A stretch of DNA of 63,993 bases, counting the filler, from Microthyrium microscopicum (lineage: Eukaryota): the NCBI GenBank assembly GCA_010405405.1. It is 4 parts of 4 records of this genome, joined end to end, with 100 filler letters (N's around TTAATTAATTAA, not from the genome) between each part and the next. Parts side by side here need not be neighbours in the genome. Positions count along the whole stretch, not along the records: positions 1 to 29,397 come from MU004237.1; 3 more parts are not named here. One strand, given 5' to 3'. Positions 648 to 41,669 of the stretch are shown one piece after another (position 1 is the first letter of the stretch; every line of letters starts with the position of its first letter). The notes beneath the pieces were generated by a model. That model was given only the letters and a program-made list of their open reading frames with translations, ran no database searches and was not told the origin of the DNA. Position numbers and translations under genes: made by a program.

Positions 648-699
648 ACGTTAAATAACTTCTACTTCTTTAGGTTAGCTAATATAACTAGTAAGACAC

Positions 700-3600
700 G
701 CGTTAGTACTACTATAAAATCTAATACAGCATATAACTTAATAGCTATATTTCTATCTATATTAAATATAACGTATAGAATTATATACTTAACTATAACT
801 ATATAGAGTAAGTATAATATTAAGATTAGTAAATATCTATATTTCTAGAAGAAGGCATTATTACTAAATTTACTAAGTAGAGTCCTAACTATATACTTTT
901 AGTAAGAGTAACATATTTTAATAGTATTAGTAAATTAATCTAGTAGTAAGCACATAAGATAGCATTTAGCGCGTTAGCCTATATAGAAAAACTAGGCAAA
1001 CGTTTAGTTTTCTATTATAAGGTTATTAGCTAGCTCTATAATTAACGTATCCTAGAGTCTTTTCTATAAACTATTCATAGCTATACTACTAATAGGTATA
1101 CTAAGTAAGACTAAGTAGATTAAATAGTTGTAAATTACCTACTATATAACTTTATTGCATTCTAATTAACTATAGTAGGAATAAATAATAAGGATATTCT
1201 ACCTATAAAGTTAAGTATATAATTTAGTAAAACTAATAGTAGTTAGTAACTTATATTATTAAATTAGCTATAGACTAAGGAGTCTATAAAATATATAACT
1301 TAGAATTGTTTATATTCTAGTATAAATAGATTAATATAATTTTATTTATTATTTAAAGGAAAGCTTTACTTATAGTTAAGTTTTACTATTTTACATCTAA
1401 ATAGTTAGTAGAGACTATACTTTTTACTCTTCTTTAGTAGTACTCTTAACCTTATTAGTATCTAACTACTAGCTCTAACCTTTAATTATAGCTTTATAAA
1501 CTATTACTATAGTAGCTTATATCTTGTCTAAATAATTAGTAATATACTCTACTACCTACGCTAGCTTAGTTAGTAAAAGTATATACTTATCTATACTAGT
1601 TAACAAAAGGAAGACGCTACTACCCTTATATAGATTATACTAGGCTAGATCCTAAATTACCTCTTACATTAGACTATATAGAGTAGTACTATTAGCGCCT
1701 ATAATATATTACTTACTAATAGGGCCTTAACGCCTAAACCTTATAATATAACTATAATAAAGAATTTTAACTATTTCTATATAATTCGTTAATAGTTGCT
1801 CTTTATTAGCAGTAGGTAACTAAAAATTCTTAAATTAATTACTTATAGTAGTAGTATCCTATAGGTAAAAAAGTATAGAGTTAATATACGTAATATTAAA
1901 TTAATTATCCTCTTTTTCTTCATTAAAACTTAAACTAATAATATAAGTATAGGTATTATCCTAGTACTTATTATAAGTATTATAATCTTACTAATTATAA
2001 AAGTTAATTATAAACTACTTATAAGTTAGCTAATACTTCTATCGTAATTAGTATTATAAAGTAAGATAAAAAGCCCTATAGAAACTATAATCCTAAAATA
2101 TTATATAAATATCTTATAAATAAAGAGCTACGTAGAAACTATAACCCTAAAATTTATATATTTTTCTAAGGCTATAGTTTTTACTACGCTCTAGGTAAAT
2201 AATAGGTAAGTTAATTAGTATATAACATAGGATAAACTTATAGTTATAAAAACTAAGTTAGGCTTATTACTTTCTAAGTAGTAAGGTCTAACTCTATTAT
2301 TTATAACTATAGTTATTAACTACTAAGTTTATATCTATTATAAGATAAGTTTAACGACTAATAACCTAATCTTATTATAAGAACTATCTTCTAATACTTT
2401 AAATATCTATTTAAAAAGCATTAGATTTATAATCTATAGATACTAGGTATTAGCTAGAGACTTACCTACTTTAATATTATTTATAAATATTTAATACAAT
2501 ATAATAAACTCTACGTTTATTAGATTAAGTATATACTCTATAAAGGTTTATAGAAAGGTAAGAGACATTTTATTACTATCTAGATCTTTAGAGTATTCTA
2601 AGTTAAAATTATAATTATATATAGTAAATAATTCCTCTAAGCTAAGTAGAATTTCTATATTACTTATCTAGTTATTTATAAACTACTATATTACATTCTA
2701 TCCTATTTTAAGATACATATTAAGTAACTAGATTTTATTAGGCACTAGGGTACTAGAAAGGCTAATAATATACTTTAGATAGCTAGGCAATATTAGGAAA
2801 TTACTTATACTATAAAAACTTAAGGATTTTTTATTTTTAATATAGTATATTTCATTAATAATAATTCGTTATAGTTTTAGGTTACTAGTTTACTAAAAAA
2901 CTAGTTATTAGGTTTTATCTTCTACTTTTTTCTTCTAGTCCTTATAGTTATTTTCTAGTTTAGAGTTATAGAACAACGCTTTACTATCTTCTTCTACCTA
3001 CGCTATCTTTGCCTCCTACTTAGTAGTTATAATAGCGTCTATATCTTTAATAACTAAGCTAGCCTTAACATTATTATTAGTAGCGGCATTAGTTTATCTA
3101 GCTAAATTGCTCTTAATATTATTAATATCTAGCTTTACTTTACTATATTAGCGTCGTTTAGGGCCTACTTTTAGTATAGTATTACTAGGCTTTAAAGTAG
3201 TAAAGGCGCAAGCTATTAAGGTAGTTTATAGAACTAGAATAATTAAATACTCTATCTTTTCTTTAATATAATTAATATTAGCGTTATACTATTTATTAAA
3301 CTATTTTATACTAGGTAGAATTAACTTAAACTAAGTAGAACCTTTATGCTACCTAGCTTACTTATACTATTAGGTAAAGCATAAGAGAGGAAAGCCCTAT
3401 TTATTAATCTTAATGTATTAAACTTCTCTAGTAGGCAAAAGATCTAGCAAACAAACTAGAGGTTATATATTACCTATATTACTTTCCTATAATATATTTA
3501 TACTAGCTAGATAAACTATAATAGTTAGAGCATAGAGTTTAGTACCTTCTAGAGTAGGATTATTTATAATTATGTTACGTATTTTTTAGACATATATATT

Positions 3601-6430
3601 AGTATATGCCTTTACTACTATAAGGATAATTAAGGTTTTGCTTAAACCTATCTTACCTACTATTAAAGCTATATAAGTAGAGTAATTAACTAGTTTATAG
3701 ATAATAGCTACGTCTAAAATATAAAGTTAGTAATAAGTTATAAGTAGAGTAAAGGAAGAATTCAATTTACATTACTAGAACTAGATATAATATATAACCT
3801 AGGAATATATATACTAGACATATTCTAATATTCCTAAGTAGTAAATTTATTAATAAAGTATTACTAAGGTAAGGATAGAGTTAAAAACTTACTAATTATT
3901 TAAGAGACTAAGGGTATAACTATAAGGTTACTACTATAATTAAATAGATTTATATAGCTAAGCTTGTCTAATTTATAGTTTCCTAAAGGATATATACCCT
4001 CTTCTATAATATAATAATAGGTATTTAAAATATTATTAAGTATATCTTATCCTAGTACTTTTAAAGCTACTTTAAAACTTATAGCATAATCTAATATCTC
4101 TTATACTATAATATTCTATACTACTAATTTTAATTAACTAATAGTCTAATTAAGTACAATTTTTTCTTTATTACTTATCTTAGTACCTATAGCTTAATTA
4201 ATTATAAGTTCACTAAACTTACACACTATAGCAGTATACTAATTAGTTACTACTTTATCTAGATATAAAAGTTAAGAGTAGTAATTAGTAGTAGCACTAG
4301 AAAGACTTAAGCTATACTAAATACGTTTAACGTTAGCCTAATACTTAACTTCCTATATATTTATAACTAAAGGACTAACCTATTTAACTTATAGAGCTAA
4401 TAATTACTTAATTATAGCTACGTAGGCTATAAGTTAGAGACAATAAGTAGGCTATTTTTTTATAGTACCCTTTATATTTTTTATAGTATATACTATCTTA
4501 GAAATTTTCTCTATTAACTAGTTCTTTAAATTTAGACCTATATTAGGTATATTACTATCTAGTAAAATATCTATACTACCTACTCTAAGAATAACGCTAT
4601 TACTACACAAAGTTTCTAATACTACTTTGCGTTTAATATTATCTATAACTATATAAGTTATATTATTATTATCTAAATTATCTTTATTATTTATACTAAA
4701 TAGATTCTTTTACTACTATATAGCAAAATCGCGTTTAATATTACTATAGGACGTAGTAAGAAGGTCCTATACGGTTTAGTAATCCTTAAAAGGATCTAAT
4801 TTACTATACTTAGCAATTTTCTATTTCTAATTTAGGAATAAGTATAGATTTTTCTTAATAGTATTAATAATATAATTAAGAGTAAATAATGCTTAGTTCT
4901 AATCCTTAATAGATATACTATATATATAATTCGTACTATATAGATATATTATATTTATATCTCTAAGTTAATAAACCTTATTAAATATTTTAAATTTAGC
5001 TTAAATAAGGTAGTAAAGAATATAAATAACTAACTTAATTAAGTCTATAAATTTCAACCTATTACTATTTTTAAACTTAATAGGATAGTCTTACTTATAA
5101 TTAGCTAGCTAGTTTAGGTACTAGATAAGAAATTAACAATATAAAGTATTAAGTACTAACTATTAAATAGCATTATTTTCTAGAAAGTTATAAAGAATCT
5201 AGAGTATAGAGATAATTTAGAATTTTATAGATATAGCGTAAGCTTACTTAGTTACGCTTTTTACGTCTATATTCTATAATATCTATACGAACTAGGAATA
5301 TATACTAGCGTTAGCCTATACTAGATTACTATTAGTAAATAGGTCTAAGTTAATATAAGTTAGATAATATATACCTTATATTATTACAAACTCCTCTAAA
5401 TCTTTAGTATATAGTAGGTTTAAACTAAGATATAAAGCTAGCTCTTAATTACTTAAGGTACTACTATATACCTACTAGTATAAACTATCTAATCCTTTAA
5501 ATACTTTAAACGTTATATATTTTTTTACTACTACTAACTCCTTCTATTTATTAGACTATACGTATATTCTTAATTAATCTTTAAACTTAACTATTTTTAG
5601 CTATAGCTTTTATAATTTAGTATAAGTAATTAACGTATAGTAATATTCAATATAGCTAAACTAATAGAAGAGATAATGCTAGAAATAGAGTCGTAGTATA
5701 CTTATAGTAACTTTTACGTAACTAATATACCCTTTTAGCTAATCTTCTATAGAAAGTTAGCTAAGTTTATAGAGTACTACGACGCTAGCTAAGTTATATA
5801 TTAAAGATATACCTATTATATTAATATCTTTATCCTTATCTACGTTAGTATAATTAGTTTACTAAGTAGCTTACTTATACTTATAAGAGGGTTTGCCTAG
5901 TTAATAATTATTATCGTTTTTATATTCGTCCTTATTAGAACTTTAATATAATTAACGTTTACGTTTAGTTATTTAGTATAGGTTTCTCTTAGTTGCTTAA
6001 ATTTTAAGCTTATTATTACTTTTAGTAATTTTAAGGTCTAGGTACTTAATCTTAATTATATTAAGATATTTATTTACTATACCTAGCTTACCTTCTTAAG
6101 ATCGCTTTTAATTTACATTTTCCCATTCTAGTATTATACTAAGGTCCTTTACCTTTTTTATTAAGAATTTTATTTTTTTATACGCTTTCTCTATAGCCTT
6201 ATCTAGTTTTAATATAACGTTAGGAGTAGTATTTAGTAAAGATTTATAAGGCCCTTTATCTATAGGTTACATTCTACTACCTACTAGAGCTTTATAAGCT
6301 ACTTTTACTATAGGTTATATACTACTAGCTAGTAGAGTTTTATAAGCTATTTAACGTACAGGTTGCTAACTTAGGCTTAAATAAGACGTTACTAATTCGT
6401 TATTATCTTTAGAGTTATTTATATTTACTA
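700..6430 (-). pseudogene. SNF2/SWI2-family helicase relic, RIP-inactivated; C-terminus probably cut by the hAT end; gene boundaries approximate
   Basis: Minus-strand motifs in the correct order: 3669-3631 ALIVGKIGLSKTL (motif I, de-RIP A-G-E-M-G-L-G-K-T); 3531-3502 ALTIIVYLAS (Ia, PTIVVCPAS), in frame with motif I; 2868-2833 RIIINEIYYIKN (II, RIIIDEAHYIKN); 2763-2738 LSSTLVPN (III, LSGTPVPN). An intron-like CTAAC...TTTTAG lies just upstream of motif I. Confidence 0.85.
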
Positions 6431-6485
6431 CTATATATATAATAGAGGATATATATTTTATAAGAAATTATAATTTAGTAAAGAG

Positions 6486-6790
6486 ATAGCTAAGATTTAT
6501 AACCTAGGAAACTAAGCTATAAGAAGGGAAAATATAAAATTAAAAAAGGAATAGCTAAGATTTACAACCTAGGAAACTAAGCTATAAGAAGGAAAAATAT
6601 AAAATTAAATAAGGAATACCTAAGATTTATAACCTAGGAAATTAGGCTATAAGAGGAAAAAATACAAAATTAAATAAGGAATAGCTAAGAACTATAACCT
6701 AGGAAATTAAGCTAAGTAAAAGAAAAGGAAAACCTAAGTAAGAGAAACCTAAAAACTATAACCTAGGAAATTAGGATATAAAATTAAAAA
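6486..6790. repeat. 65-bp tandem repeat (4 units plus partial), each unit carrying the (T/A)ACAACCTAGGAA motif
   Basis: Units start at 6486, 6551, 6616 and 6681 (ATAGCTAAGATTTATAACCTAGGAAACTAAGCTATAAG...). A less-mutated instance, TTTACAACCTAGGA, is at 6561. Confidence 0.95.
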
Positions 6791-7929
6791 AAGTAGGCTA
6801 AGTAATAGAATACCTAAAATATATAGCCTAAGGATTTTAGCTAGGACTATAAAAAGTAGATAATATAGAGTAAACATAGTTTTATTAATTAGTATTAAGT
6901 TTAGAATAAATAATAAGATAGTAGAAAAGAGTTAAAAGAAAGTATAGAGTAATAACTTTAATAAAAAGGTTTTAAATATATACAATAAGCTAGCTACAGA
7001 CTACAACCTAGGAATTTTAAAGCCTATCTACTTAAACTAAACTTTAGAATTTATAAAGAATTATAAAGAAGAAATAAAGGAACTATAAACTTAAAATGCT
7101 TTATACTTTTTTAGTAAACCTATAGACAAATATTTCGCTAGATATTAATATACGCCTTCTAATATTTAAAAACTTAGCAAATAATCCCTAAAAAGGAAAA
7201 GCATAATATATTAAGTAGGTAGTAGCGTTTTAATATAGATATAGAGTAAGATAGAGTATAATAGTAGTTACCCTTACCTATACTAAAATATAGAAGTATA
7301 AGAACATAGGATAATAGGAGCTAAGCATTAGCGTACTAAATCTATAGTATTAAGAATAACTATATATAATTATAGCATAAGACTTATATTCTAAGGTTAT
7401 AAACTCTAAATAGTATATATCTATTAGCAATTTAGATCTACTCTATATCTTATTTCGTTTAAGTATCTATAATTCTAGGGTTATATTCTATAGTAAGTTA
7501 TATTATCCTTCTAAATAGTAATATTCTCTCTAGCGAATTTAAAACTTATTACTAATTCTTAAGAAGATATTTAATATATTAGATTTACATTATTCTAATA
7601 TAATAGTATTATTAAGATAAATAATAAATTAATTACTATTAAATAACACATAGGTATAGTATAAATTTTTATATTTAATTAATAGGGCTAGGTAGTTTAC
7701 TACTATATATTATCTACCTTATAACCCTTTCTATATACTAACTAACTTTTATTATTTATTTTTTTCGTTTCTTCTTTTATTCATTTATTATTACTAATAT
7801 AGTTATTATAATTATTAATATTATTATTATTTAGTTTTTTATACTTATTATAATAAAGATAAGATATTATATAGTTAGGTTAAAATTATAGTTACTATAA
7901 ATTATATAACGCAAGTATATCTTAGTTAT

Positions 7930-9063
7930 TATAGAAGAAGAGATTTAGATAATTTCCCTATTCTCTATAGCTACTACTTCTTCTTCTTCTTATTTTTTAG
8001 CTATAGCTTCCTCCTTAAGCTATAAATAATAAGCTTCTTTGCGTCTAATAAGGATAATAGCCACTCTATATATATTATTACTAGGCTATAGTAGTATAGT
8101 AGGGTAATAGATTATAGCATTTTAGTTAAGGCTAACTATATTAACTTTATTAAGTCTAGTAAATTTAATCTTTAATTCCCTAGTTACTATAAGCTTTATA
8201 AGGAGATTAGGGTTCTATTTAAACTTCTACTTAGTTCTAAAATATAACGCTTTTTAATAAAAGCAATCTTTCTATCTTTTCTATAAGGTTTAATTATTAC
8301 TATATTTTATACCTTAAGCTATCTTAAGAAATATATTATTTACTACCTTTTTAACTAATACTTTATACTTAGAGTAAATAGCCTAAGCAATCTTAATATA
8401 ATACAATATACTATAAATACAAATTAGCTAATACTATTAGTTATAAGATTATGCTCTTTTAATTATACTATCTATTCTAAGGAGGTATTATATAGAATTT
8501 TATACGTTAGTATAGATATTAAAATAATCTAGTTAAAAGACTATTAAAGAGTTAGATAATAAATATAAGAATCTAAACTCTTAGTCTAATTATATAGTTA
8601 GAAAGATAGTATCCTAATATACTAAAGAGATAGGAATATAGTTAATTTAATTATAAGGTATTAAAAGCAATAGCTATAATCTACGCATAGCTAAAGAAAT
8701 AATACTACTAATATTATTAACGATTATTACTTATATAAAACTAGTAGGAATTATTAGTAGCAAAAGAATAGATACTAAACTACGCTTATTCTACAATATA
8801 GTTAATATTTTAGCAATTCGTCTTATCTAAACTTTTTAGCTATTATCCTTTATAACCTTAGCTTTAGTAGGTTTAGCTTTAGTCGCCTTAGTCTACTCTT
8901 TAGTTAGTTTAACGTTAATAATTAATCTAGTAATATTAGACTTAACCTTCTTATCTAAAGCTTTAGTCTTTTTACTAGTTATATTTACCTTCTTTATAGT
9001 AGTTGCTAGCTAACCTTATATACTTTTAGCTATACCTATAGAAGAGTAGTTATTACTAAGCAT
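7930..9063 (-). pseudogene. Unknown gene relic with K/A/T-rich N-terminus
   Basis: The ATG is retained in both copies (CAT at 9061-9063; ATG CCT AGT near 51274). It is followed by a protein-like frame (KKTKALDKKVK...TKATKAKPTKAK) and lies directly downstream of the 57-bp motif array. The 3' end is approximate. Confidence 0.5.
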
Positions 9064-9169
9064 TTTGCTAGGTATAATAGAGAATTACCTACTTATCTAA
9101 ATAAAATATAACTAAAGAAATAATAACTAAAAAGAGGCAAGAATAAAAAGGAATAGTAGCTAAGAGCCT

Positions 9170-9480
9170 ACTATAAACTATAACCTAGGAAGTAGATAGA
9201 AAAAGCTAATAAAATACTAATAGGCTACTAAAAACTATAACTTAAGAAATAGATAGAAAAAGCTAGTAAAATACTAATAAGCTACTAAAAACTATAATCT
9301 AAGAAGTAGAGAGAAAAAGCTAGTATAATATTAATAGCCTACTAAAGACTATAACCTAAAAAGTATAGAGAAGAAGCTACTAGAATAGTAATAGCCTACT
9401 AAAGACTATACCCTAAGAAGTATAGAAAAGAAGCTACTAAAATAGTTAAGAGGCTACTAAAATATATAACCTAGGAAATA
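9170..9480. repeat. 57-bp tandem repeat (6 motif copies) carrying ACTATAACCTAGGAA
   Basis: The motif recurs at 9177, 9234, 9291, 9348, 9405 and ~9463. Confidence 0.95.
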
Positions 9481-10019
9481 AGTAGAAATTATTATACATT
9501 TTATTAGTAACTTAAGAATAAGTAGTAAAGTAGGCAAAAGAGTTATAAGAGGCTAATAGAAACTACAACCTAAGAAATTAATATAGGCTAAAATATAGGA
9601 ATAGATAATAGAGTAGTTTAAAAAAGATTTAGAGAAAATTAAGACTAAATAGTTAGAGGTTTTTAGCTTAACCCTAGCCCTATTAATATTTCTAAGGTTT
9701 TGTAACCTATAATTGCCTAATATAATGCCTAGTATATACCACTTTAGGTAAGTATAATAGGAATTACACAGGTTAGATATTTTATAACACTAAGCCTTAT
9801 AGCAGACTACTATTTTAGGAAGTAATAAGTAAATTAAATTTATATAGCTACTTCTTATTATAGTAATAATAGGTAATAAAGAGGGCTTTACTAGCCTAAA
9901 TAAGTAAACATTTCTAATAATATACTCTATATTAAAAGCACTATCTAAAAGCTATAACCTAGAAATATTAGAAAGTAAGTTTTAGCTTTAAACTATTAGA
10001 TAAAGGTTATAACTATATA

Positions 10020-10440
10020 AATATTTAGTTATTTTAGGGTTATAGTCTTTATATAGCCCTTTATTAGGTATATATTCCTCTCTACTATTCTTTTCCTAGA
10101 GCTATTTTTCCTATATACAAATTTAGTTATTTTAGAGTTATAATCTTTATATAGCCCTTTATTTAGATATATATTCCTCCTTATTAGTCCCTTACTAGAC
10201 TTTTTTAGCTATTATAATAGTTATATATTTTAGGATTATAGGTTTTGTATAGTTCTTTATTATATATATAATCCTACCTATTATATATATTTTTAGCTAT
10301 TATATTTATAATAAATTTTAGGGTTATAGTTTTAATATAGCTCTTTATTATATATATATTCCTCTCTACTATAGTTGTACTAGATATATTTAGGTACTAT
10401 AACGGTAGTGTATTTTATAGTTATAGTTTTTAACTAGCTC
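10020..10440. repeat. ~100-bp degenerate tandem repeat with the same motif in the opposite orientation (TTTTAGGGTTATAG)
   Basis: TTTTAG(G/A)GTTATA...TATAGCYCTTTATTA...TATATATTCCTC repeats near 10030, 10130, 10228, 10316 and 10414. Confidence 0.85.
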
Positions 10441-11099
10441 TTTATAGTATAATTTAATATTATGCTTATAGTCTATAAATATANNNNNNNNNNNNNNNNN
10501 NNNNNNNNNNNNNNNNNNCCTACTTAGATATTATAGTTAGTATATATCTTATTACTACTTTATAAAATATTATCCTATATATTTATATTATCTATTCTAT
10601 TTTCTATTATAAACTATTACATTATAGCTATATATTATTATATATACTTTAGTTAGATAAGTTCTATAATCTTAACTAATAATTGCTAGAAAGTCTACGT
10701 AGGTTGTAGTATAATCCTACTATTTTCTATCTTACTTTAGACTATCTTATTTTACCTTCTATTTCTATTAGGTATTTATAGAGGCTATTAATACTATAAC
10801 TAATTATTTATCTTCTCTTACTATTAAAGTAGCAAATAGTATAATGCTAGTTGTATAGTATATAGTATAATTCTAGTTCATTATAGTATTATAGCTATAG
10901 ATATCCTATTATATATATAGGTATATTAGTTTTATCTCTAATTAATTTATCTATATCTAACTCTTTTTTAATAGAGTTATCTATTTATTTTTAGGTTATT
11001 ATAGAATCTATATATAAGAAAGGTAGCTTATAATCTTAGTTTGTATAATATTTTTAAATTAATTATAGTTTTTATAGTATATATTATTCGTTATTATTA

Positions 11100-14000: not shown

Positions 14001-14830
14001 AAGTATATTATTTCTTAAGGTAAAAGGTCTTACTATAAAGGATAGTCTCTATATAGTACTAGTATATAGTAGTATTACCCTATATTCTATATACTAACTA
14101 TATTTATTTAAATCTAGGTAGCTTTTATCTAGGCTTACTAAGTATTATTTACTTAACTTCTATAATAAATGCCTATACTGCTAATTCTACTATAATTTTA
14201 AGGGCTTTATTAAGGTTTCTATTTATAAGTACTACGCAAAAGATATTATATTAGATAATAAAGGCTATAAAGGTAGGTTTAATAAGGTAAAGGATATTAG
14301 GAGAATTAGGTCTAAAAGGCATTTTATAGAATAATATAATAGTTTATTATAACTTATATATAAATAAGTTAATAATTTAAATTATATAGAAATAGTTATA
14401 TATCTTATATTATAGGAATCTATCTACGTTTTTACGTCTAGATATATATTTATTCTTATTATATATATACTAAACTCCTATCTACTACTAAGGCTATATT
14501 AACTTAGTCTTAGGCTCTATAAGAATAAATAGTAATTCGTACCTATTAGGTACGCTTTTTTATGCCTAATATAGTTAATAATAAGTTTTCTAATTTCGTA
14601 CTAGAGTTCTAAATAAGGACTATTTACTAATAGTTAATCTTTATTTATAGCATGTTATTTATATAATTAAAATCTAATATAGATATTTTATTAGCTAATT
14701 AATTAATTATACGCTAAATTTAGTTTTTAGTTAGTTAAGGTCTAAGTATACTAACTAGTCCTTTAATCTATTCTAGAATCTTAGTAAGCATATTTGTATA
14801 ATTATTTTACTAGCTACTTAGCTTCTATTC
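11100..14830 (-). pseudogene. Large unknown gene relic, with a possible Cys/His cluster and an acidic tail; boundaries approximate
   Basis: A long protein-like minus-strand frame runs at ~13830-12900 (e.g. KFLKTIKPSKEAKKTR*RIPYSF). A run of TAT codons at 13296-13200 is compatible with RIP-converted TGT/CAT. The region is duplicated at 36874-40137 and 48905-49272. Confidence 0.45.
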
Positions 14831-17640: not shown

Positions 17641-19819
17641 TATATATATATAATATTTATTAAAGGGCATATGCTATAGAACGTTAATTAGACAAATATC
17701 CCTAATAACTAGAAATAGAATATATTAGTGCTACTATTTAAGTTATTTTATATAAAGATACTACTCTTTACTACAAGATATTAAATTAAGAAAATAAACG
17801 TAAATACTAAATCCTAATAATAACCTACTCCTTTAAACAAGAACCCTAAGACAAATATTCTTATACTTATATAGGTTTAGAATAGGCTAGATAATATTAT
17901 ATTCCTAATTAAAAATATAAATAAGATATCTATATTTAATATAATTAGTTTTAAAGTACCTAAAGAACGTTAAGATATTAATTCTACCTTTATATATAGC
18001 TAGTAAAAATAGATAAAGCATAGTACTATCTTAATTATAGACTCTATATATATAAATCTCATTTAGGTTTAGAACCTATAATTATTTAAAACTAAGGCGT
18101 AGCGTCTATTCTTTATTATAAAACATTAAATATTATAGTTTGTATTAGTTCTTAGTTAATAACATATAGGACTTATATACTTAAATAGCCTATATTATAT
18201 TCTTTTCCACTATTATACTATTTAGGAATTATAAGGATATAAGGCTATTCTACTCTTTAGATATTAACCTTAAAGAATAAGTATAGTTTAGCTTAATTAC
18301 ATCTACTACTAGAGGAAGTAAATCTAGTAAAGTAGATAAAGAGGATAAATAACTATTAACTAATAGATAGTTAGTATTAGGATAATTAGATAAATAATCG
18401 TAATATTAGAATATAAAGTTATCTATTTCTTATAATATAAACTAGTAATCTTTAAATAAAAGATAAGGTATTATCTAATAATATAAAATGCCTCTCTACT
18501 AAGTATTATCTTAAGTAGCTATATAAACGTTAGAATTAAGAGTATCTACTATAATATTATTAATATAAGTTATTTCTATTAGTAGTATAGACTATAACTT
18601 ATTACTATAAGATTCTTTATTATTACTATATTAGAATAAGGAGATATCTAGGCTGTCTATATATTTAGTANNNNNNNNNNNNNNNNNNNNNNNNNNNNNN
18701 NNNNNNNNNNNNNNNNNNNNNNNNNNNNNNNNNNNNNNNNNNNNNNNNNNNNNNNNNNNNNNNNNNNNNNNNNNNNNNNNNNNNNNNNNNNNNNNNNNNN
18801 NNNNNNNNNNNNNNNNNNNNNNNNNNNNNNNNNNNNNNNNNNNNNNNNNNNNNNNNNNNNNNNNNNNNNNNNNNNNNNNNNNNNNNNNNNNNNNNNNNNN
18901 NNNNNNNNNNNNNNNNNNNNNNNNNNNNNNNNNNNNNNNNNNNNNNNNNNNNNNNNNNNNNNNNNNNNNNNNNNNNNNNNNNNNNNNNNNNNNNNNNNNN
19001 NNNNNNNNNNNNNNNNNNNNNNNNNNNNNNNNNNNNNNNNNNNNNNNNNNNNNNNNNNNNNNNNNNNNNNNNNNNNNNNNNNNNNNNNNNNNNNNNNNNN
19101 NNNNNNNNNNNNNNNNNNNNNNNNNNNNNNNNNNNNNNNNNNNNNNNNNNNNNNNNNNNNNNNNNNNNNNNNNNNNNNNNNNNNNNNNNNNNNNNNNNNN
19201 NNNNNNNNNNNNNNNNNNNNNNNNNNNNNNNNNNNNNNNNNNNNNNNNNNNNNNNNNNNNNNNNNNNNNNNNNNNNNNNNNNNNNNNNNNNNNNNNNNNN
19301 NNNNNNNNNNNNNNNNNNNNNNNNNNNNNNNNNNNNNNNNNNNNNNNNNNNNNNNNNNNNNNNNNNNNNNNNNNNNNNNNNNNNNNNNNNNNNNNNNNNN
19401 NNNNNNNNNNNNNNNNNNNNNNNNNNNNNNNNNNNNNNNNNNNNNNNNNNNNNNNNNNNNNNNNNNNNNNNNNNNNNNNNNNNNNNNNNNNNNNNNNNNN
19501 NNNNNNNNNNNNNNNNNNNNNNNNNNNNNNNNNNNNNNNNNNNNNNNNNNNNNNNNNNNNNNNNNNNNNNNNNNNNNNNNNNNNNNNNNNNNNNNNNNNN
19601 NNNNNNNNNNNNNNNNNNNNNNNNNNNNNNNNNNNNNTAAAGTAAGAATAGGTCCTTTACTAGTAGTATATAGTAGAATAACGACCCTAATAGGAAAGTA
19701 AGTATATTAGTTAAGATATTAGGAAAGACTTATAAAATATAGATAAGTTCCTTATTATTCTAAATAGCTTTATTTACTTTAATTTTACGTTCTATCTTAT
19801 TACTTATTCTATCTTACTA

Positions 19820-20885
19820 CTTATATTAGGGTTAATAGTAACTTCTTTATCCTATACTAGCTTATATATAGTAATTATTACTAAGTAGAATATACTAACT
19901 ATTCTTATAGGTAGCAAGCTAAATTACATTACTTATAACTATATCTAAGGTAAAGAAGGTAAATATAGTAGTAAAGGACATAGTAGCTATAAAGAAGGAG
20001 GACGTAGCAGCTATAGCAATACTAGGCTAAGATTAAGTTCTATAAAAAACCTCTTTGTCTCTAAATTATAGTTACCTATAGGAGCCTATAGTTAAATTAT
20101 ACTTTATACTAGAATAGGGTATTAGGAGTAAATAAGTAGCCTTCTCTACTACTAGCTAGTCCTTCCTAACCTATACTAAGTAACTAGGATTAATAGTAAC
20201 TTCCTTATCCTATACTAGCTTATATATAGTAATTATTACTAAACTAGGCTAAGATTAAGTTCTACGAAAAATCTACTTTATCTCTAAATTATAGTTACCT
20301 ATAAGGAGCCTATAATTAAAATATACTTTATACTTTATAATGCTAGAATAGAGTATTAGGAGTATCTTTATTTAAGTAGATAAGTAAGCTATATTAGTAA
20401 TAGTAAATTAGTCTTAGTAGAACTTCTAGAAGTAGAATATTAAAGAATAGCTCTTTCCTTAATAATAGTAGAGTTAACACTATAGCTATTATACTTTCTA
20501 AGATAACTTTATTAATATTATACGTACCTTTTAGAATAACTTTATTAATATTATGCTTATATAACTCTAAGTAACTATCTCTCTTAAGATGCTATTATTA
20601 TTTTAATACTTAGCTTATTCTAGTTTAATTATATAGTATTAAGTATACTTATTACTCCTTATAGAAAGTCTAAGTTATTAGATATACTATAGATACTTAA
20701 AGGAATAGCTTATAGGTAAGTACTATAGTTAATAAGAGGTAATTAAAACGACTAGAAGTTAAGAAATTACTATTTACCTTCTTCTATACTACTAGCTAAT
20801 CCTTCTTAACCTATACTAAGAGACTAAGGTTAATAGTAACTTCTTCGTCCTATACTAGCTTATATATAGTAATTACTACTAAAGT
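19820..20885. repeat. Modular internal repeats (a ~60-bp module x3 and a ~110-bp module x2)
   Basis: TTAATAGTAACTTCYTTATCCTATACTAGCTTATATATAGTAATTA occurs at ~19832, ~20190 and ~20830. ACTAGGCTAAGATTAAGTTCTA...TATTAGGAGTA occurs at ~20021 and ~20243. Confidence 0.9.
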
Positions 20886-21299
20886 AGATTAAGCTATAGC
20901 TATTAGTCTTTTTAATATATCTTTAATAAGAGGCTATGTCTATAATAATAGAATATATCTATAATAATAGAATATATTACTAATAATAAGAATTAGTAAT
21001 AGCAAGAGATTATATTATTAATAAAAAGATAATCTTTAGTTAGGAATATATATATATTAATAAGAAGAGTATATTAGGTTAAAAAGAGAATAGGCTATCC
21101 TCTATAGTAGATAAGCTCTCTACTAATATTATACTCTATAAGAAGGATAGTTAAAAATATTTTATAGAGTTTTTAGATAAAAGCTACTATACTAGGCCTC
21201 TAAGTTAAAGTCGCTTTTTAAGCTACTATAAAGAATAATTAAACTAATTAGTTATTATATTGCTTCGCTATATTAATTAAAAAGAATATTAAGTAGGTT

Positions 21300-21840
21300 A
21301 TTAGTATAGAAGGTAGCCTAAGTATTTATAAGGATAAAGGTACTATAATCTAAAGAGTTTTATTAATAACTACTCTTTACTCTCTTAAATATTTATTTAC
21401 TCTTGTCCTAAGCGTTACCTAACTTATATTAAAGTATTTCTTTAGCTAAAGTAAGAATAGGTCCTTTACTAGTAAATAAGAAGTTATACTAACGTACTTA
21501 ACGTTATTAAGGAAGAATAGTTAGTAGAGTCTAGTAACTACTTTAATAAATTAAAATAAAGAGTTTATAAACGCTAAGAAGATTCTTTCTACTAATTTTT
21601 TAGTACTTTATCTAATAAGTAATCTTTTTAATACTATCTTATTATTATATCTTGTAGAACTAATAAGTATTAAGTATATAATATTATAGAATATTATCTT
21701 TAATTAGGGTTCTTACTATTTTTATCTATTTAGCAAGTTTAGACTTAGCCTTTTCGTAAAGCTTAGTAAGGAAGCTATTAATAATTTCGTTATTAAGCTA
21801 ATTAAGTAGTTTAAGAGTTTAAAAGTTTTTAATAATAATT
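21300..21840 (-). pseudogene. Ulp1/C48 SUMO-type cysteine protease domain relic (copy in block B)
   Basis: The minus strand reads TLKLLN*LNNEIIN (WLNDEIIN) and then the His, Asp and Cys-region motifs, as in the mirror copy at 61693-62190. Confidence 0.85.
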
Positions 21841-22469
21841 AGAGTTCTACTAATATTTAACTATAGTGTCTACTATAAGAACTACTCTTTATAAGGTAGG
21901 TAGTACTAAAGCTACTTCTAAGTATATTACTCCTACTAATAACTATAAGATTAGTAGTTAGTTTGTACTTAAATTTATAACTAGATTAAGTAAATAAAGT
22001 ATCTATGTTAATTAGTTATACTTATTAACTACTAAAAGCAAACTATTTATTAAAGTGCTTCTACTACTAAGCGCTAAGATTAAACTATAGAGTTTACTAA
22101 GTTCTATAAGTTTAAAAATTGTTAAATTATAGTTTAAACTAGTAATTTACCTAATATAATAATATTAATCTAGTAGGCTTTATCTAGTAAATATTAGACT
22201 AGTTATTTAATACCTCAAAATAGTATTAAACTAAATTACTATATATAACTAAGCCTATAAAAGAGGTTAGTAATTATATAAAGGATTATACTTTTATTAA
22301 AACTTTCTTATATAGAGTTAAAGATATATATCTTAAGCTTTATCTAGGATATCTTATAATTTATATAAACTACTAAAGTAGTATATATATTTCTAAGAAA
22401 TTTAACTTATTCCTATATATTGCTCCTTATTCTATCCTTAATACTAAATATTAAGTTAGTATAGAGTTA

Positions 22470-22700
22470 ATATAGAGTTAGCCTAGGTTAGTATATAGTT
22501 TAAATACTAGCCTAGGGTTTAAATATTAGCCTAGGGTTTAAATATTAGCCTACCTACATATAGAATTAGCTTAGGGTTAGCCTAGGATTAGCCTAGGGTT
22601 AGCCTAAGTTTAAATACTAGCTTAGGGTTTAAATATTAGCCTACCTATATATAGAGTTAGCCTAGGGTTAGCCTAGGGTTAGCTTAGGGTTAGCTAGGAG
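22470..22700. repeat. Telomere-like minisatellite of AGGGTTAGCCT 11-mers and AGGGTTTAAATATTAGCCT 19-mers
   Basis: Direct reading, e.g. GTTAGCCTAGGGTTAGCCTAGGGTTAGCTTAGGGTTAG at 22656-22693. Mirrored at 60815-61070. Confidence 0.85.
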
Positions 22701-23149
22701 TTTAGAGTACTAGAAGTTTAGTCTAGTTAACTTTTTAAGTATAGTTTATTAAATAATACTATTAATATTATATACGTTATTATTATTTATACTTATACTA
22801 GTATTATTTCTATATATATTCTTAATCTATTTATATCTTAATTATAATTATTACTATAGCAAGTTATTATATTCTTATTATTATGAGTTAGTATTAGTAA
22901 AAGAGAGTTATATTAGTAGTAAATATAATAAAGAAGTTAAATATTAAATTCATTAATCTTAATTTAAATTTATTTATTTACTTTAGTATTTAAAGTATAG
23001 ATATTATCCTATAATTTAACTTAAATTATAATAACTATTAGTTGTTAGAATTATAACTCTAATCTTTATTAGAACTTAAACCCTTTAAGTCTATATTATC
23101 CTCTAAGTCTAAGTTATTCTTATCTAACGTATTTAAGTACCTAAGACCT

Positions 23150-23215
23150 TTATTACTATTATTATTATTACTATTAATATTATTACTATTATTATTATTA
23201 TTATTATTATTAGTT
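23150..23215. repeat. (TAT)n tract, probably a RIP-converted poly-Asp run of a small minus-strand gene (~23500-23050)
   Basis: The mirror at 60304-60366 reads AAT AAT AAT... within a frame continuing LDKDNLDLEDN. GAT/GAC>AAT is expected under RIP. Confidence 0.55.
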
Positions 23216-26200
23216 ATAAAATGTTAAGAAGGTTAACTATATATATATAAAATTATAAACGTTTAGATAAAGTTATATAGCTAGTCTATATTATTAGGAT
23301 TAAAATTTTTCTATAATTTAATATCCTATACTATTATATTAGCTAGTATTAGCTCTAGTAAGATTATTAATTATAAGGAGTTACAAAATCTAAGCAATTC
23401 TTTAAGGCATATATCTAGTTTAGCCTATATTTGCTCTTCTATTTACTTTTCTATTATTTTATATAGGTAGTAGGCTTTATATAAAGGACTTATAAGGCTT
23501 ATAATAATAGATATTATAAATATAGATTAAGTATTAGTAGATATAGAAAGAGAAAGATAGAGATTTAGTATATAAGGTATTTATATTTTAATTTATTATA
23601 TAGAATTAGGTAAGGGCAAAGTAACGCTTAGTTGGTTACTATATCTAACCTAAAGACTAGAAGTTACTTACTTATATTAAAGTATTTCCTACTATTACTA
23701 TATCGTCGTAAATAATAATTAAAATATTAAAGTTATAATTATAACGTATAATAAGTTCTTAAGGTTATTAGTATTAATATAAGACTACTATTAAGTAACT
23801 AGTCTATTTTAAGTAAGTAATAGCCTAGTTCTCTAACCTTTTTTATCTATAGTTATTATATAAAAATTAAATGCTAGATTCTAGTTTAGAAAGTTCTAGT
23901 ATCTCTAAGCTAAATCCCTTTAGTCTTAAGTATTCTAGTATATATAGTTATTCTACTTCTAATTTTTAAATTTTATTTATATTAATAACTTATATAACGT
24001 ATACCTTAATATTTCTTTTTATTATAAGTATAATACTATATTATGCTTTCTTTATTACTAAAGCCTAAGAGGTAAATAAAAACTATAGCCTAGGACTAGT
24101 ATACTATAATTCTTTCTTATTATTATAAAGAGGTATATAAAAGTTATAACCCTAAATTAGTATACTACGTTTCTTTTACTATTATTATAAAGAAGTATAT
24201 AAAAAGTATAACCCTAAAGTAGTATATTATACTAAGTTATAGGTTTTATATACTTCTAAGGTTTAATTTAGATAAATATAATAATATTTTATACTTTTTT
24301 TATTATTACCTTAAGAGGGTATAATAGAATTATAGTATAAGATTAATATATATCTTATACTAAGTTATAGTTTTATATTATTTATATAGGTTAATAAGTA
24401 GTTAATTCTTATTACTTAGGTTCTAAACTATAATCTAAATTATAACTTTAGTACTAGGTTATTATTATTATTTAGGTTTTAAGATATATTTTATCTATAA
24501 TTAGGCTTATACTATCTATATAGATAGTACTAATTATTAAGACTTAAAAGTTAATACCTTAAGAATCTATTTAATAGACTTCTCTATTAGAATAAAGTGC
24601 TTTAAACTCTTAGTTCTAAAGGCCCTAGGAGTTAAATACTATTATGCTTCTAGCTAGTTATTTAGTAACTACTTTTATTATTTATAGTAGTTTTAAGGCA
24701 ATCTTAGAGTTTAGTATATACTTAGCTTTATTACTAAAAAAGGCTATAGAGTTATTACGTTTTTGCTAAATAACCTTAGTACTAGCATAGTATTAGTACT
24801 AACTAAGATATAATTTTAGTTTAGACTTATATATAAATAAGAAACTATAGCTAGCTACTTAACTATTTCTAACTAATAGTCTACGTATTATATTTAGTAA
24901 TAGCTTATTAAACGTTAGGTTTCTATAAACTACTTACGTAAAGATAAATATAAAAGTATTTTCTAGTACTATATAAATAGTATTTATTATAACTAACTTT
25001 ATAATTAATATTATTATAGTCTATAGTAAGATTAGGCTAATTATTAAAGATATTAGTAATAACTTTAATTATATAGCTACTATAACTAAATAGAGCTACG
25101 TTCATATTAAATTTTGCTATAAAAGCGTAACTAAATAGCTATATTATAAGTATTAATAGCTAGATATAAATAGAAGATACTATTATTAAATCTTACTATT
25201 AGTATATATACTATAATACTTTACGTACTTACTTCCTAATTAATAATATTAAAAGCCTTAACTATAAAGTCTTACTAAGTACTTAATATAGCAATATAGC
25301 TAAAATAAGGTTTATAAATTAGTATATATAGTAAGACTTTCTATATAAAATTAACTTACTTATTTACTTATTTTATATATTATTATAATATAAACTATTA
25401 TAAAGAGTAGAGAGTAGAAAAGAAAAGAATAAAAGTAGTAGAATAAAAAAGAAAAAGAGAAATATAGAATAAGAAAAGTAAAGAAGGAAGCTATAAACAT
25501 AAGTAATATATATATTAAGCTTAGCTAGTATATAAGTAATACTATAATTACCTTTATAAGTAATATAGTAAACTAGTACTACTTTAAAAATAATAGTTAA
25601 CTTTATATATAAGTATAGAAGCTAGAAACTAAAAAGAAATATTAAATATTAATATTAAGAGTTAAAGTAGATATAAATAAATATATAGATACTAGTAAGT
25701 ATCTTTATACCTAAGGTAATAGTAGAACCTTATAGAAATTAATATAAGAAATATAGTTTACTTAAGCTAATCTATCTATAAATACGCCTCTAAGCTTTTT
25801 ATCTAAGTCTTATAATAAGATTAATATATTATTAAAAAATATTTACTAAATATATTATTTCCTATTTATTTCTAGATATAGAAAATAGTCTCTAAATAAG
25901 GTTAATTAATCTAGAAATAATAAAAAACAATATTAGAATAGAGTATAGTTCTTATACTTTTAAAAATAAGATACCTTAACTAATATTAAGCTTTATTACT
26001 AAGACGTACTACTAAATTTAATTTAGCAACTAACTATAATACTAAAAAAGGAAGTACTTAAGTACGTATTAGTATTAAAAGTTAAAGTAGATAGGAGTTA
26101 AGGTAGATAAGAGTTAACGTATATAGGAGTTAAAGAGCTAGGAGCTAGAGCTAGAAGCTAGGAGCTAGATTAGGAAGTAGATATTAAATATATATACTAG

Positions 26201-26624
26201 TAGTTAAAGCTAATAAAAGCTAGGTACTAGGAGTAGTATATATTAAATTTTAGTATTAGGAGTAGATAATAAATATTAATATTAGGAATTAAAGCAAATA
26301 GCTAGGAATTTTTTTAGAGAATTTTCTTAGGTTTATTTTAACTCTAGCGTATTTTTACTAGGTAAATTTTAGGTAAGAGGGTTTAAGTAGAGCTAGAATT
26401 AAGGTAGATAGTAGCTAAATATTAGTAGTAGTAGCATATAGTAGTATATATTTAAAAACTATAAACCCTAACCCTAAATTTATCCTAACTTTAGTACTAT
26501 AATTTAGTCTAAAATTTTACTACGCTAGCATAATAGTAGCATATAACTCTACTATTATATAAAGTTAAGGTTATAGGTTTAAATCCTACGTATAGTAGAG
26601 TTACCTATTTAATCTTTATAAAGA

Positions 26625-26920
26625 ACGTTTTTTTTTGCTATAGTAAAAAAATATAGAAAATAAGTAGCTTAATAAGCTAAGTATAGATATATTATCTATT
26701 TATTTTTTAGCCTTATATTAGTAGAGATAAAGATAATTTTATATATTTTAGTAACCTTAGTAGTAGCAAAGTTACTAAGTTAATCCCTATAGAGGATATT
26801 TTTTTACTATAGTAAAAAGATATAGAAAATAAGTAGCTTAATAAGCTAAGTATAGATATATTATCTATTTCTTTTTTAGCCTTATGTTAGTAAAGATAGA
26901 GGTAATTTTATATACTTTTA
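26625..26920. repeat. 169-bp tandem duplication
   Basis: TAGTAAAAARATATAGAAAATAAGTAGCTTAATAAGCTAAGTATAGATATATTATCTATTT occurs at 26641 and 26810. Mirrored at ~56740-57030. Confidence 0.9.
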
Positions 26921-28180
26921 TAATACTTTTAGGTAGAGGTAACCTTAGTAGTTATAAGTAGATATTAGGATATATTAAAATTAAATAGCTAAATTCTTCT
27001 ATAATTAGTATATATAACTTTATTAACATTAAAAAGGTAATATAAGTCTTAGAACAAAGATATACTATAGAAGTTATTAATATCTAGTAAAATATAGCGC
27101 TAAAGTTATATAGTAAGTAAATAGTAAGGGCGTATTAAATTTTATAGCTAATATAATTTACTAAATAGTTATTATATAAGAATAATATAAAGTAATTTCG
27201 TACTAAGTAATAGGAACTACTTTAATATACTTACTAATCTTATATAGACTAGTAAATTTATCCTTATTATTATACTCCTATATCTTAATACACCTTAACG
27301 CTTTATAAGTCTAAGCCTTTATATCTAAGTAGTATTAATACTAAAAGTATAGTAGACCTAAAGAAGGTTTATATAGTAGAAGAATATAGAGTATATATAG
27401 AGTAGTATTATTAGTAAAATAAAAGGGCTTATTACTTAATAACTCTCTAAGTTTTTCTAGGATATATTCTAAGCTACTTTAGTTAGTTAGTATAACAAGA
27501 TTAGTATTAATATTAAGCTCTATTAAGCGCATCTACTTTAATATATCTTATAGTCCTTTTAGAAACTTACTTATCCCTCTAAGGGCTAATTTATTAAAGT
27601 GCTAATTATATATATATTTATTATAGTTTTGCTATATTTTATAAGTAGTATATTACTATTATAAGTCTTTAACTAGTATAATTAATAGTAGAATAGGTAG
27701 TTTCCTTTTATATAGAGTTTATTATTAAGGAATATAAAAGAATAGTATTTCTATAATTACTAAGTAGGAAAAAGTAGTAGTATTAAAGAGTAAAGTTAGT
27801 AATATTTTAGTTTAGGATTAGGTAAGGATTTAGCTAGAGTTAAGGAGACTAGCAAACCCTATAATAATATACTCCTTCCTCTATTTTTTATATCTTAATT
27901 GTTATCTATACTATCTTCTTTAGTATATATAAATTATTTAATATTTACTATAATAAAGTAGAGTAGTACCTATTATTACTATATCCTAGTCTTATAATAA
28001 GGTACTAAAGAGCTATCTAAAGTCTATAACCTAGTTATTTAGTAGTCTTATATTATAATAGTTAGTAACTATAGTACGTAGAGTAAATATATTTATTTAA
28101 GACTATTAACTTTTAGCTTAATTATAGTATAGCATAATATAGCATAGTATATTAGTAATCTAAATATTACTATAGGCTTC

Positions 28181-28233
28181 TTAAAAACTATAGCTTAGAA
28201 GAAATATTAAAAAAGCTAGGTTATAGTTTTTAA
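28181..28233. repeat. Inverted pair of the shared motif (18-bp arms, 17-nt spacer), ~470 bp inside the element terminus
   Basis: TTAAAAACTATAGCTTAG (28181-28198) and CTAGGTTATAGTTTTTAA (28216-28233) are 16/18 complementary. Also present at ~55427-55480. Confidence 0.8.
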
Positions 28234-29441
28234 AGAGCTCTTTAGAGTAAATTGCTAAGACTACTAGAATTAAATAGAGAGTTAACTTTAGATAAAGCAA
28301 GTATAAGTAAATAATATATAGAGCTATAGAGTAAAGTAGTATTATACTATTAGGTATTAGTTTAGTAAGTATTATTACTAATAGTTAAAAAAAAGGTTAT
28401 ATTCTATTAGTAAGTTACTTTACTAAGTCTTCCTAACATAGTATTTTAATAATAGAATTTTTACTAAGTCCTAACTTTATACTATTAGATCTATCTACCT
28501 AATAAGAGTACTATATTATATAAAATTATATATATTTAATAGAGAACATTAACCTAAGTAATATAAGCTTTAGAGCATATTTATTAAGTAGGTATTAAAG
28601 GAGTTATAGAGGTATAGAAGTATCTCTCTACCAAAAATATAAACTTTTAGTAGTCTAACATTTTGCATACAAACCAATCTAACTCTAGCTTACAAACATC
28701 TACTATAAATTTTATAGAATTTAATTTAAATATATTTATTAATTAGTTATAGATTAGAAATATACTTTTATAAAGATACCTAGTTTATATTTACTCTATA
28801 TAATATATTAGTATATTATATCTTAGATTTTATAAAAATATTCTAATAAATATAACTTTTATATAGTACTAAATAGTATAATTAAGTTTATTATAATTAT
28901 ACTAGTAGTATAAGCTAAGGTAATAAAAACTTTATTTTAGATATTCTTAGTAGTATAATAAAAGCTAAATATTAATAATAAAGGTTTTATATTAAAAGCT
29001 AGTACGTCGTTAGAACTAAGTAATAGTAATAATAAGAATATATTAAGGTTTAATATTAAGAAGATAGTAATTATAATACTTTTCTAAGTTTTTATATTAA
29101 GTAGAAGAATAGTTTTAGAAAAAAATAGAGAGTTATTATACTAGTATATAAATACTCTAGTAGTCTTTAGCTAAAGTAAAGTAGAGCTAAGTAACTTATT
29201 TTTAGTAATATTTTTAAGTAAAGTATTTTAAGTATTTTAAGCTATAAGTTAGTTAATTCTATATATAGTAGTACTCTTCTCTATTTTAATTAGTATATCT
29301 AGTCTAGGTAATAGCCTTAGATTAATTTATTTTAACTTTTAAGTACTAGTAAGAATTATATATAGCTATATTAAGGGTTATATATAACTATATTAAGNNN
29401 NNNNNNNNNNNNNNNNNNNNNNNNNNNNNNNNNNNNNNNNN

Positions 29442-40456: not shown

Positions 40457-40486
40457 ATTCTAATACTTCTTAACGTACTATATAAT

Positions 40487-41666: not shown

Positions 41667-41669
41667 AGT

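Follow-up and report, generated by a model that had tools for sequence, protein, structure and literature searches.

Relics of SNF2 and Ulp1 genes in multi-copy, RIP-killed repeat DNA of Microthyrium microscopicum

Is the long repetitive DNA found in the genome assembly of the fungus Microthyrium microscopicum (GCA_010405405.1) one giant mobile element, or several repeats that have come to lie within each other? The window analysed here, a stretch of 63,993 nucleotides joined from parts of four records, contains two long blocks, A and B, each present twice, together with relics of an SNF2-family ATPase gene and of a Ulp1/SENP-type (C48) cysteine protease gene. An initial annotation read positions 648-28705 as a single giant multi-gene element holding both relics. 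We find that the window consists of multi-copy, gene-bearing repeat DNA with SNF2 and Ulp1 relics, killed through repeat-induced point mutation (RIP). The single giant element is the less likely explanation. The reading we favour, with about even confidence, is a mosaic of at least three nested, RIP-killed repeat families, in which a higher-copy Ulp1 element, B, lies within a longer, lower-copy repeat that bears SNF2. The sequence as it stands is dead DNA and its mobility is unproven.

Two repeated blocks, their RIP damage and their depth

Three identical 100-nt constructs interrupt the window, which we take to be artificial six-frame-stop joins between contigs. The window is thus made up of four contigs (1-29397, 29498-35179, 35280-62407 and 62508-63993), and because these have simply been concatenated, adjacency across the linkers carries no meaning. 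The second copies of A and B do not share a locus with the first but lie on a separate contig, contig 3, bounded by artificial linkers. They take up the whole length of that contig, so where they stop on the outside is simply where the contig stops and not a biological end. Runs of N inside the contigs are of a different kind. Their length differs from that of the intact other copy (for example 860 N against 1024 bases), and read-contigs continue into the run at 18671-19637 from either side, showing that the internal runs, whether gaps or withheld stretches, hide real sequence.

That both blocks occur twice in the window was confirmed by self-BLAST, which found inverted second copies at 88-95% identity. 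For block A, 5198-10296 matched 54953-50099, 11210-14836 matched 49272-48903 together with 40138-36874, and 15202-16589 matched 36667-35280. For block B, the matches paired 21116-25175 with 62407-58318 and 26199-28706 with 57457-54954. The split of the second A copy was caused by a Ty3/Gypsy retrotransposon, flanked by long terminal repeats (LTRs), that had inserted with a 5-bp target-site duplication (TSD). A comparison in codon-class space revealed no further paralogues hidden within the window.

RIP damage runs throughout, as the initial annotation had it. The whole window is extremely AT-rich, with a GC content of 0.11-0.25 in every 2-kb interval. RIP is indicated by a TA/AT ratio well above about 0.9 and a (CA+TG)/(AC+GT) ratio well below about 1.0; in all sixteen 4-kb intervals these indices were extreme, at 1.58-1.90 and 0.02-0.18 respectively. 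Over 16346 aligned bases the copies showed 1319 mismatches, comprising 1250 transitions and 69 transversions, with 178 gap bases. At the transition sites, the C or G was retained by contig 1 in 927 cases and by the other copy in 323. Most RIP mutations are common to both copies and the residual differences lie mostly at CpT/ApG, indicating that CpA is saturated. We also aligned the copies as purines and pyrimidines only (RY space), a comparison that RIP transitions cannot alter. Here they were 97-100% identical, for instance 99.85% over 11572-14836. Divergence between the copies is almost purely the product of RIP.

The nature of these differences bears on whether contig 3 could be an assembly artefact, either duplicating contig 1 redundantly or misassembled from it. 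The window is indeed a concatenation of contigs and several N gaps fall inside the repeats. Against this, 8% of sites are mismatched between the copies and transitions in a strand-consistent RIP pattern make up 95% of these mismatches, with few indels; the Gypsy element and its TSD are present in one copy only; and many of the variants are backed by read-contigs. We consider an artefact very improbable.

Read-contigs showed the repeats to be more than a two-copy duplication, in agreement with their earlier description as repetitive. The data came from four runs (X1-X4) of one sample, whose contigs were placed on 10519-29397 at a minimum of 80% identity. Between 595 and 2996 read-contigs per run fitted this interval at 80-100% identity, and their differences were overwhelmingly transitions. 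In run X2, 755 fell at 99% identity or above, 923 at 95-99%, 1084 at 90-95% and 234 below 90%. As the read-contigs are so numerous and differ chiefly by transitions, the A and B families must have many diverged copies. Mean summed depth over A, the middle stretch between the blocks, and B was 1085, 819 and 3269 in X1; 330, 398 and 845 in X2; 1066, 1296 and 2962 in X3; and 53, 36 and 125 in X4. Depth of B was therefore 2.38-3.30 times that of A plus the middle stretch in all four runs. In the bin past 28788 it dropped to 807 (X1), 222 (X2) and 520 (X3). Contigs that matched exactly in X2 had a depth of 27-32. Very roughly, this would put A at about 10 copies and B at about 25.

Relics of Ulp1 and SNF2 genes

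Ulp1 proteases are recognised by WLND..IN, a motif with the catalytic His (HW), one with the Asp (YDSL), and one with the oxyanion Gln and the catalytic Cys (Q.N..DCG). The ordered pattern WLND..IN, PI[HN]...HW.L, YDSL, Q.N..DCG occurred twice in the window, once in each B copy, and in 0 of 300 shuffles; its last part had been loosened after a first version, QQ.N..DCG, gave 0 matches. The Ulp1 relic described in the initial annotation is thus real. In its present state Y, N and Y stand in place of the catalytic His, Asp and Cys. Upstream the frame is limited by the tandem array at 22498-22713, and for this reason the protease looks stand-alone, about 430 codons long and unfused to a transposase. 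The region gave no match to Pfam PF02902, with 0 families at E<=0.05 and likewise at E<=10 for a 280-codon piece.

SNF2 ATPases carry motifs I (GLGKT), Ia, II (DEAHxxKN) and III (GTPxQN) in this order. Motifs were read through the RIP channel, in which G becomes S, R, D, E, N or K; A becomes T, V or I; P becomes S, L or F; H and C become Y; D becomes N; E becomes K; and Q and W become stops. Motif I (KIGLSKT) was found on the minus strand at 3654-3634 (IALIVGKIGLSKT), the one match in six frames of 64 kb where 0.46 were expected. Motif II (NEIYYIKN, read as DEAHxIKN) lies on the same strand at 2856-2833 (RIIINEIYYIKN, corresponding to rIIlDEAHxIKN), again as one match, with 0.11 expected. The two motifs share a frame, stand in the correct order 266 codons apart, and are followed by SLSSTLVPN, which approximates LSGTPxxN. 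A combined pattern for motifs II and III, the latter with P in place of Q, gave one match against 0.007 expected. We estimate, unsimulated, the joint chance of this frame, order and spacing at about 1e-4 or less. The C-terminal motifs IV-VI are not securely readable. The initial annotation had set the SNF2 relic within the duplicated blocks. The relic itself stands on motifs I and II but its placement does not, since both motifs lie in the unduplicated stretch 648-5197.

Profile and sequence searches of the SNF2 region were empty: 0 Pfam families in the minus frames of 1-6900 at E<=1, 0 matches for 900 codons run with phmmer against 1.84 billion representatives, and 0 matches among PDB sequences at E<=10. 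Small pieces of the Ulp1 and SNF2 relics also returned 0 Pfam families at E<=10; one of them, the third, had probably been taken in the wrong frame. When stops were treated as X, Pfam found 0 families in the plus frames of 1501-4200 and in all six frames of 4000-10482, 10519-18670 and 19638-29397. The Gypsy element provided a positive control for these searches. Its LTRs are 89% identical to each other and 100% identical in RY space, and it was RIP-mutated after its insertion into the second A copy. Treated in the same way it yielded RT_RNaseH (7e-10), RT_RNaseH_2 (2.6e-9) and SH3_Tf2-1 (2.3e-5) but neither RVT_1 nor rve. Because the control gave only some of its domains, HMMER is only partly sensitive at this level of RIP.

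Coding phase was followed instead by the fraction of codons of the form purine-any-pyrimidine (RNY), which transitions leave unaffected, in windows of 150 codons with a threshold of 0.315. In the true phase the fraction was 0.325 for SNF2 and 0.339 for Ulp1, compared with 0.19-0.25 in other phases; the Gypsy element was weak, at 0.256. Nearly all of 1-6260 was coding-like, the signal passing through four phases in turn and peaking at 0.37-0.43 in them, and over 851-6260 the fraction was 0.33-0.43 in successive phases. The scan also marked additional coding-like segments (Table 1), in line with the further gene-like frames first reported. These could not be assigned to strands, as a test by RY codon-class usage had the wrong sign for Ulp1, and the mostly co-oriented arrangement first described is not confirmed. 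Low density of stop codons was tried as a gene finder and rejected: in the heavily RIP-mutated Gypsy and SNF2 controls, stops are fewer in the antisense than in the sense frames.

A short motif is arrayed in both blocks, as had been noted. TATAACCYTAR occurred 18 times where 2.7 were expected, a count reached in 0 of 100 shuffles, and TATAACC 59 times where 24 were expected. Tandem Repeats Finder gave array periods of 48, 65, 57, 98 and 62 nt, the 62-nt array being that in B. Copies of the motif TATAACCCTAA lie, for example, at 2140, 10034, 10318, 24145 and 24207. The arrayed core holds one telomere-repeat unit, and an exact (CCCTAA)2 occurs once, in the non-coding tail of B. With this telomere-like unit the DNA may have come from a subtelomere, or the motif may be a site for a telomere-repeat-binding protein.

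Contig 2 has 2.9 kb of continuous RNY phase (31116-33998; maximum 0.38), with no similarity to other parts of the window. Neither strand's frame gave a Pfam match here, and nor did the coding-phase segment of contig 4. The contig 2 segment is a RIP-killed gene or transposon.

Table 1. Coordinates of the features identified in the 63,993-nt window
Feature	Position	Strand	Remarks
Block A	5198-16589	+	Self-BLAST 88-95%, RY 97-100% to 54953-35280; includes 35-N gap 10484-10518
Second copy of block A	35280-54953	-	Contig 3; broken by Gypsy element and N gaps 36668-36873, 49273-50098, 54773-54792
Middle stretch	16590-19968		A-level depth; 967-N gap 18671-19637; single-copy within the window
Block B	19969-28706		Higher-copy repeat; left end approximate, set by depth step alone; part duplicated in the window 21116-28706
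Second copy of block B	54954-62407	-	Contig 3; Ulp1 copy inside at 61720-62178 (+)
B2	26149-28706		2.56-kb tail of B; near-zero coding signal; highest depth in three of four runs; (CCCTAA)2 at 26466-26477
Right flank	28707-29397		Beyond the right terminus of B; itself repeated
Large SNF2-family ATPase gene relic	850-6300 (approximate)	-	Motifs I and II in frame, RNY; three phase changes; runs over the start of A (5198)
Ulp1/SENP-type (C48) cysteine protease gene relic	21150-22450	-	Catalytic core 21800-21342; copy 61720-62178 (+)
Ty3/Gypsy LTR retrotransposon	40138-48904 (8.77 kb)	+	319-bp LTRs 40138-40456, 48586-48904; TSD GTAAG 40133-40137, 48905-48909
Coding-like RNY segments, A and middle stretch	8272-9198, 12580-13992, 14468-15586, 16348-17751		
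Coding-like RNY segments, B side	19595-20347, 20964-21899 (Ulp1), 22332-23601, 24566-25324		
Coding-like RNY segment, end of B and right flank	28631-29397		
Tandem arrays with TATAACC(Y)TAR core	6255-6364, 6486-6843, 9160-9477, 10030-10372 (A); 24067-24231 (B)		
Linkers	29398-29497, 35180-35279, 62408-62507		Identical 100-nt constructs: 44 N + TTAATTAATTAA + 44 N
Internal N runs	10484-10518 (35 N), 18671-19637 (967 N), 30744-31053, 36668-36873, 49273-50098, 54773-54792, 57458-58317		Irregular

Junctions and the arrangement of the blocks

The sharp shared end reported for B is real, although one base away from the position given (28705). In the RY alignment the last base of B, 28706, aligns to 54954 and the first base of A, 5198, to 54953. 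In contig 3 the end of B therefore adjoins the start of A with zero bases between them, and in contig 1 both points border other sequence. The unit 5198-28706 so defined starts with TCTAGAGTATAG and ends with CTACTAT. A further neighbour was revealed by a read joint that leads from 28707 back by 2559 to 26149, present in three of the four runs with a 46-letter side; most other read joints have sides of 20-29 letters and were excluded from the analysis. This joint is not a misplaced start of A, as only 6 of 46 bases are identical. The end of B thus has three distinct right-hand neighbours: the flank in contig 1, A at 5198 in contig 3, and 26149 in the read joint.

The order of the blocks also differs, being A, middle stretch, B in contig 1 and B, A in contig 3. 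At the other boundary, coding phase 2 is unbroken over 3900-5399 (RNY 0.33-0.43 per 300 nt) and so crosses 5198. As the phase spans this point, 5198 looks like an insertion or truncation point within a gene and not like the terminus of an element. We favour nested families because the depth of B exceeds that of A, the end of B has several neighbours, the block order is opposite in the two contigs, and the coding phase crosses 5198. The same observations count against a single giant element at 648-28705, as does the failure to find terminal inverted repeats (TIRs), LTRs, a TSD or a transposase for it. Judged by whether A and B occur independently, each with its own termini, the single-unit reading is weakened, but two 23.5-kb units lying head to tail would account for the junctions just as well.

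Searches for element ends were made with several methods. BLASTN of the ends found no LTR or TIR for A or B, and neither BLASTN nor RY alignment found direct repeats flanking them. The flanks of 5198 and 28706 have only A-rich bases in common. A possible TSD of B, matching the right flank over 10 nt in RY space at 20035 and 20257, was rejected, about 1.5 such matches being expected by chance. With no flanking direct repeats, A and B were rejected as LTR retrotransposons; the sole LTR pair belongs to the nested Gypsy element. Helitrons are marked by a Rep protein (HxH), a Pif1-type helicase, and 5'-TC and CTRR-3' ends. A Helitron was rejected too: motif III gave 0 matches, other Rep and helicase motifs were at chance level, and the 5' TC is present but the 3' end is not CTRR. 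Patterns for hAT were at chance level in the window. A loose H..RH pattern for tyrosine recombinases gave 283 matches against 255 expected, and RIP this heavy leaves profile searches blind.

In the nested arrangement that we favour, the lower-copy component (A+) would be a long multi-gene repeat that starts ahead of base 1, extends to about 20.0 kb and probably picks up again after 28706. It would carry, on the minus strand from about 6.3 down to 0.85 kb, the large gene of the SNF2 family, along with four or more other coding-like segments. B would be a higher-copy element of about 8.7 kb (about 20.0-28.706 kb) with a discrete right terminus, the Ulp1/SENP gene, two to three other segments that look coding and a non-coding tail of 2.56 kb, and the Gypsy retrotransposon would be the third family. 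B would have inserted behind the middle stretch in contig 1 but within the SNF2 gene region, at 5197|5198, in contig 3. Transposition, probably of the cut-and-paste type, may have moved it, and Ulp1 would be an accessory gene, as it is in other DNA transposons that carry it. A+ may have spread as a large block together with its genes. RIP would have followed each duplication, converting C:G to T:A until CpA was saturated and ruining every reading frame. Nesting by transposition did occur at this locus, since the Gypsy element with its TSD sits inside an A copy.

A local direct duplication of about 110 nt (20026-20135 and 20248-20365, 222 nt apart) lies where depth steps up to the level of B. 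It may adjoin the undefined left end of that element.

The abutment of the two ends in contig 3 suggests another arrangement, in which 5198-28706 (A, middle stretch and B) is one 23.5-kb mobile unit, smaller than the element first proposed, present head to tail in contig 3 and singly in contig 1 between unrelated flanks. In that case the unit would have Ulp1 and the other genes as its cargo, while the SNF2 relic would lie outside it, as its neighbour or its target. In a head-to-tail dimer the similarity ends 5198 and 28706 would be neighbouring bases, as they are at 54953/54954, and it is also consistent with such a unit that the A and B copies have diverged alike (7-9%) and that one short motif is arrayed in both. 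However, the depth of B is 2.4-3.3 times that of A in all four runs, the end of B elsewhere joins 26149, and the coding phase crosses 5198. Neither TIR, LTR or Helitron ends nor a recombinase or transposase were recognised. We regard the 23.5-kb mobile unit as unlikely.

The same three junctions would also be produced without mobility, if a chromosomal block of genes had undergone tandem or segmental amplification. Here 5198-28706 would have been duplicated with its left breakpoint in the SNF2 gene, contig 3 would be the internal junction and belong in the 967-N gap, and further copies would have arisen by unequal crossing-over, followed by RIP. Duplication of a segment S in X-S-Y predicts exactly the junctions observed (X|S-start, S-end|S-start and S-end|Y). 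The gap at 18671-19637 of contig 1 lies between the two positions at which contig 3 ends, A 16589 and B 21116. A breakpoint within a coding-phase region is to be expected in this case, as is the failure to find TIRs or a TSD, and the similar divergence of A and B also fits. There is a precedent in X3X3R8 of Stagonospora nodorum, a 26-kb multi-gene repeat with Rad5/SNF2-like helicases (PMC3017866). On the other hand, arrays of whole units predict equal depth for A and B, contrary to the runs. The flanks 1-5197 and 28707-29397 are RIP-mutated as heavily as the unit, and the right flank is itself repeated; 28975-29270 is covered by 296-nt read-contigs both with 0 and with 32 differences. The second junction at 28707, to 26149, would need a coincident breakpoint. 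Amplification of this kind is unlikely in our view, though slightly less so than the 23.5-kb mobile unit.

Several points weigh against the nested families. The left end of B is not defined, and the abutment of the B end with A at 5198 fits two head-to-tail 23.5-kb units equally well. Divergence is alike for A against A and B against B, which also fits joint copying of the two. Evidence that the phase continues over 5198 comes from a bin of 100 codons with a fraction of 0.33 (z about 1.9), and two unrelated genes would have a one-in-three chance of sharing a phase there. No TIR or TSD was found for B: the best inverted match of either end in RY space was 40/50 (z about 2.8 among 29000 positions), and gapped RY alignment gave its end a score of 36.5, the mean of the null being 36.6, a weak test while the left end is undefined. 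No transposase was recognised in A or B, the six Pfam frames of 4000-29397 being empty, by the same method that missed RVT_1 and rve in the Gypsy control. The depth values are sums of contig word depths and not copy numbers, they come from four runs of one sample that may be the source of the assembly itself, and in run X4 the flank bin stood at 120, not below the B mean of 125.

A bolder version of the nested arrangement can also be considered. A+, with at least 20 kb, at least five genes and about 10 copies, could be a giant autonomous mobile element of an undescribed kind, akin to the X3X3R8 repeat discussed below and equipped with its own chromatin remodeller. B would then be a smaller mobile element that prefers A+, and the motif arrays (TATAACCCTAA) would be binding sites for one of them. 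We think this doubtful.

Comparison with known elements

Ulp1/C48 domains or genes are carried by plant Mutator-like elements and by Zisupton/KDZ and Ginger1 DNA transposons. B resembles such elements in being multi-copy and several kb long with a discrete end and a Ulp1-type protease gene. It differs in that no transposase, TIR or TSD was recognised and the Ulp1 frame is apparently stand-alone. In fungi, the C48 protease is an accessory domain of cut-and-paste transposons, and KDZ is reported from Basidiomycota and early-diverging fungi and not listed for the RIP-competent ascomycete group that the window resembles (PMC5751038). Extra Ulp1 genes have also been described on accessory or mini-chromosomes of Parastagonospora and Colletotrichum (PMC8146201, PMC10779208). 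A transposon-borne origin, if true, would account for these.

The window shares with the AT-isochores of Leptosphaeria maculans a GC content near 20%, saturated CpA-to-TpA mutation, LTR elements within older repeats and a lack of intact genes. By contrast, the older repeats here carry host-like genes (SNF2 and Ulp1) and not just transposon genes. Starships of Pezizomycotina are tens of kb long, carry multi-gene cargo, are often RIP-mutated, and have a DUF3435 tyrosine-recombinase captain at one end, their termini being marked by short direct repeats or TIRs. Size, multi-gene content, a filamentous ascomycete host and RIP damage are all in keeping with a Starship. However, the estimated 10-25 copies would be high for one and no terminal repeats were found. 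No described element with the combination of SNF2 and Ulp1 was found in the literature searched, including that on Kyakuja/Zisupton and Starship elements, with Repbase and most subscription journals outside the search.

The closest precedent is X3X3R8, a 26-kb RIP-affected repeat of Stagonospora (Parastagonospora) nodorum SN15 (Hane and Oliver 2010, PMC3017866). The repeat holds three Rad5/SNF2-like helicase genes, a Rad6-type E2 (ubiquitin-conjugating enzyme) gene and two open reading frames of no known function, nine copies retain gene models, and its sub-repeats X3 and R8 were first taken for separate families (PMC3017866). The name X3X3R8 was not found in later papers in the literature searched, most subscription journals being outside it. 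The two cases differ in that Ulp1 is found here and a Rad6-type E2 there, and in that one SNF2 relic stands against three helicase genes. Ulp1, sentrin and SUMO have 0 occurrences in five supplementary files of PMC3017866. Conversely, no E2 was found in this window, as the single RIP-degenerate match to an E2 (UBC) motif, at 17298, failed on its surrounding context. The likeness is one of size class, multi-copy status, an SNF2 relic and coding segments of no known function.

Large gene-bearing repeats in RIP-competent fungi are poorly understood, and X3X3R8 has been unexplained since 2010. Profile searches are blind to such DNA at the level of RIP seen here, and the present case shows that RY comparison and RNY phase still recover gene relics and junctions. 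Like X3X3R8, the repeats of this window are large, multi-copy and RIP-affected, with host-like genes that include an SNF2-type helicase, uncharacterised reading frames and sub-repeats. If another SNF2-bearing case is added to it, large elements or amplicons with chromatin or SUMO/ubiquitin-pathway genes would seem to be a class that recurs.

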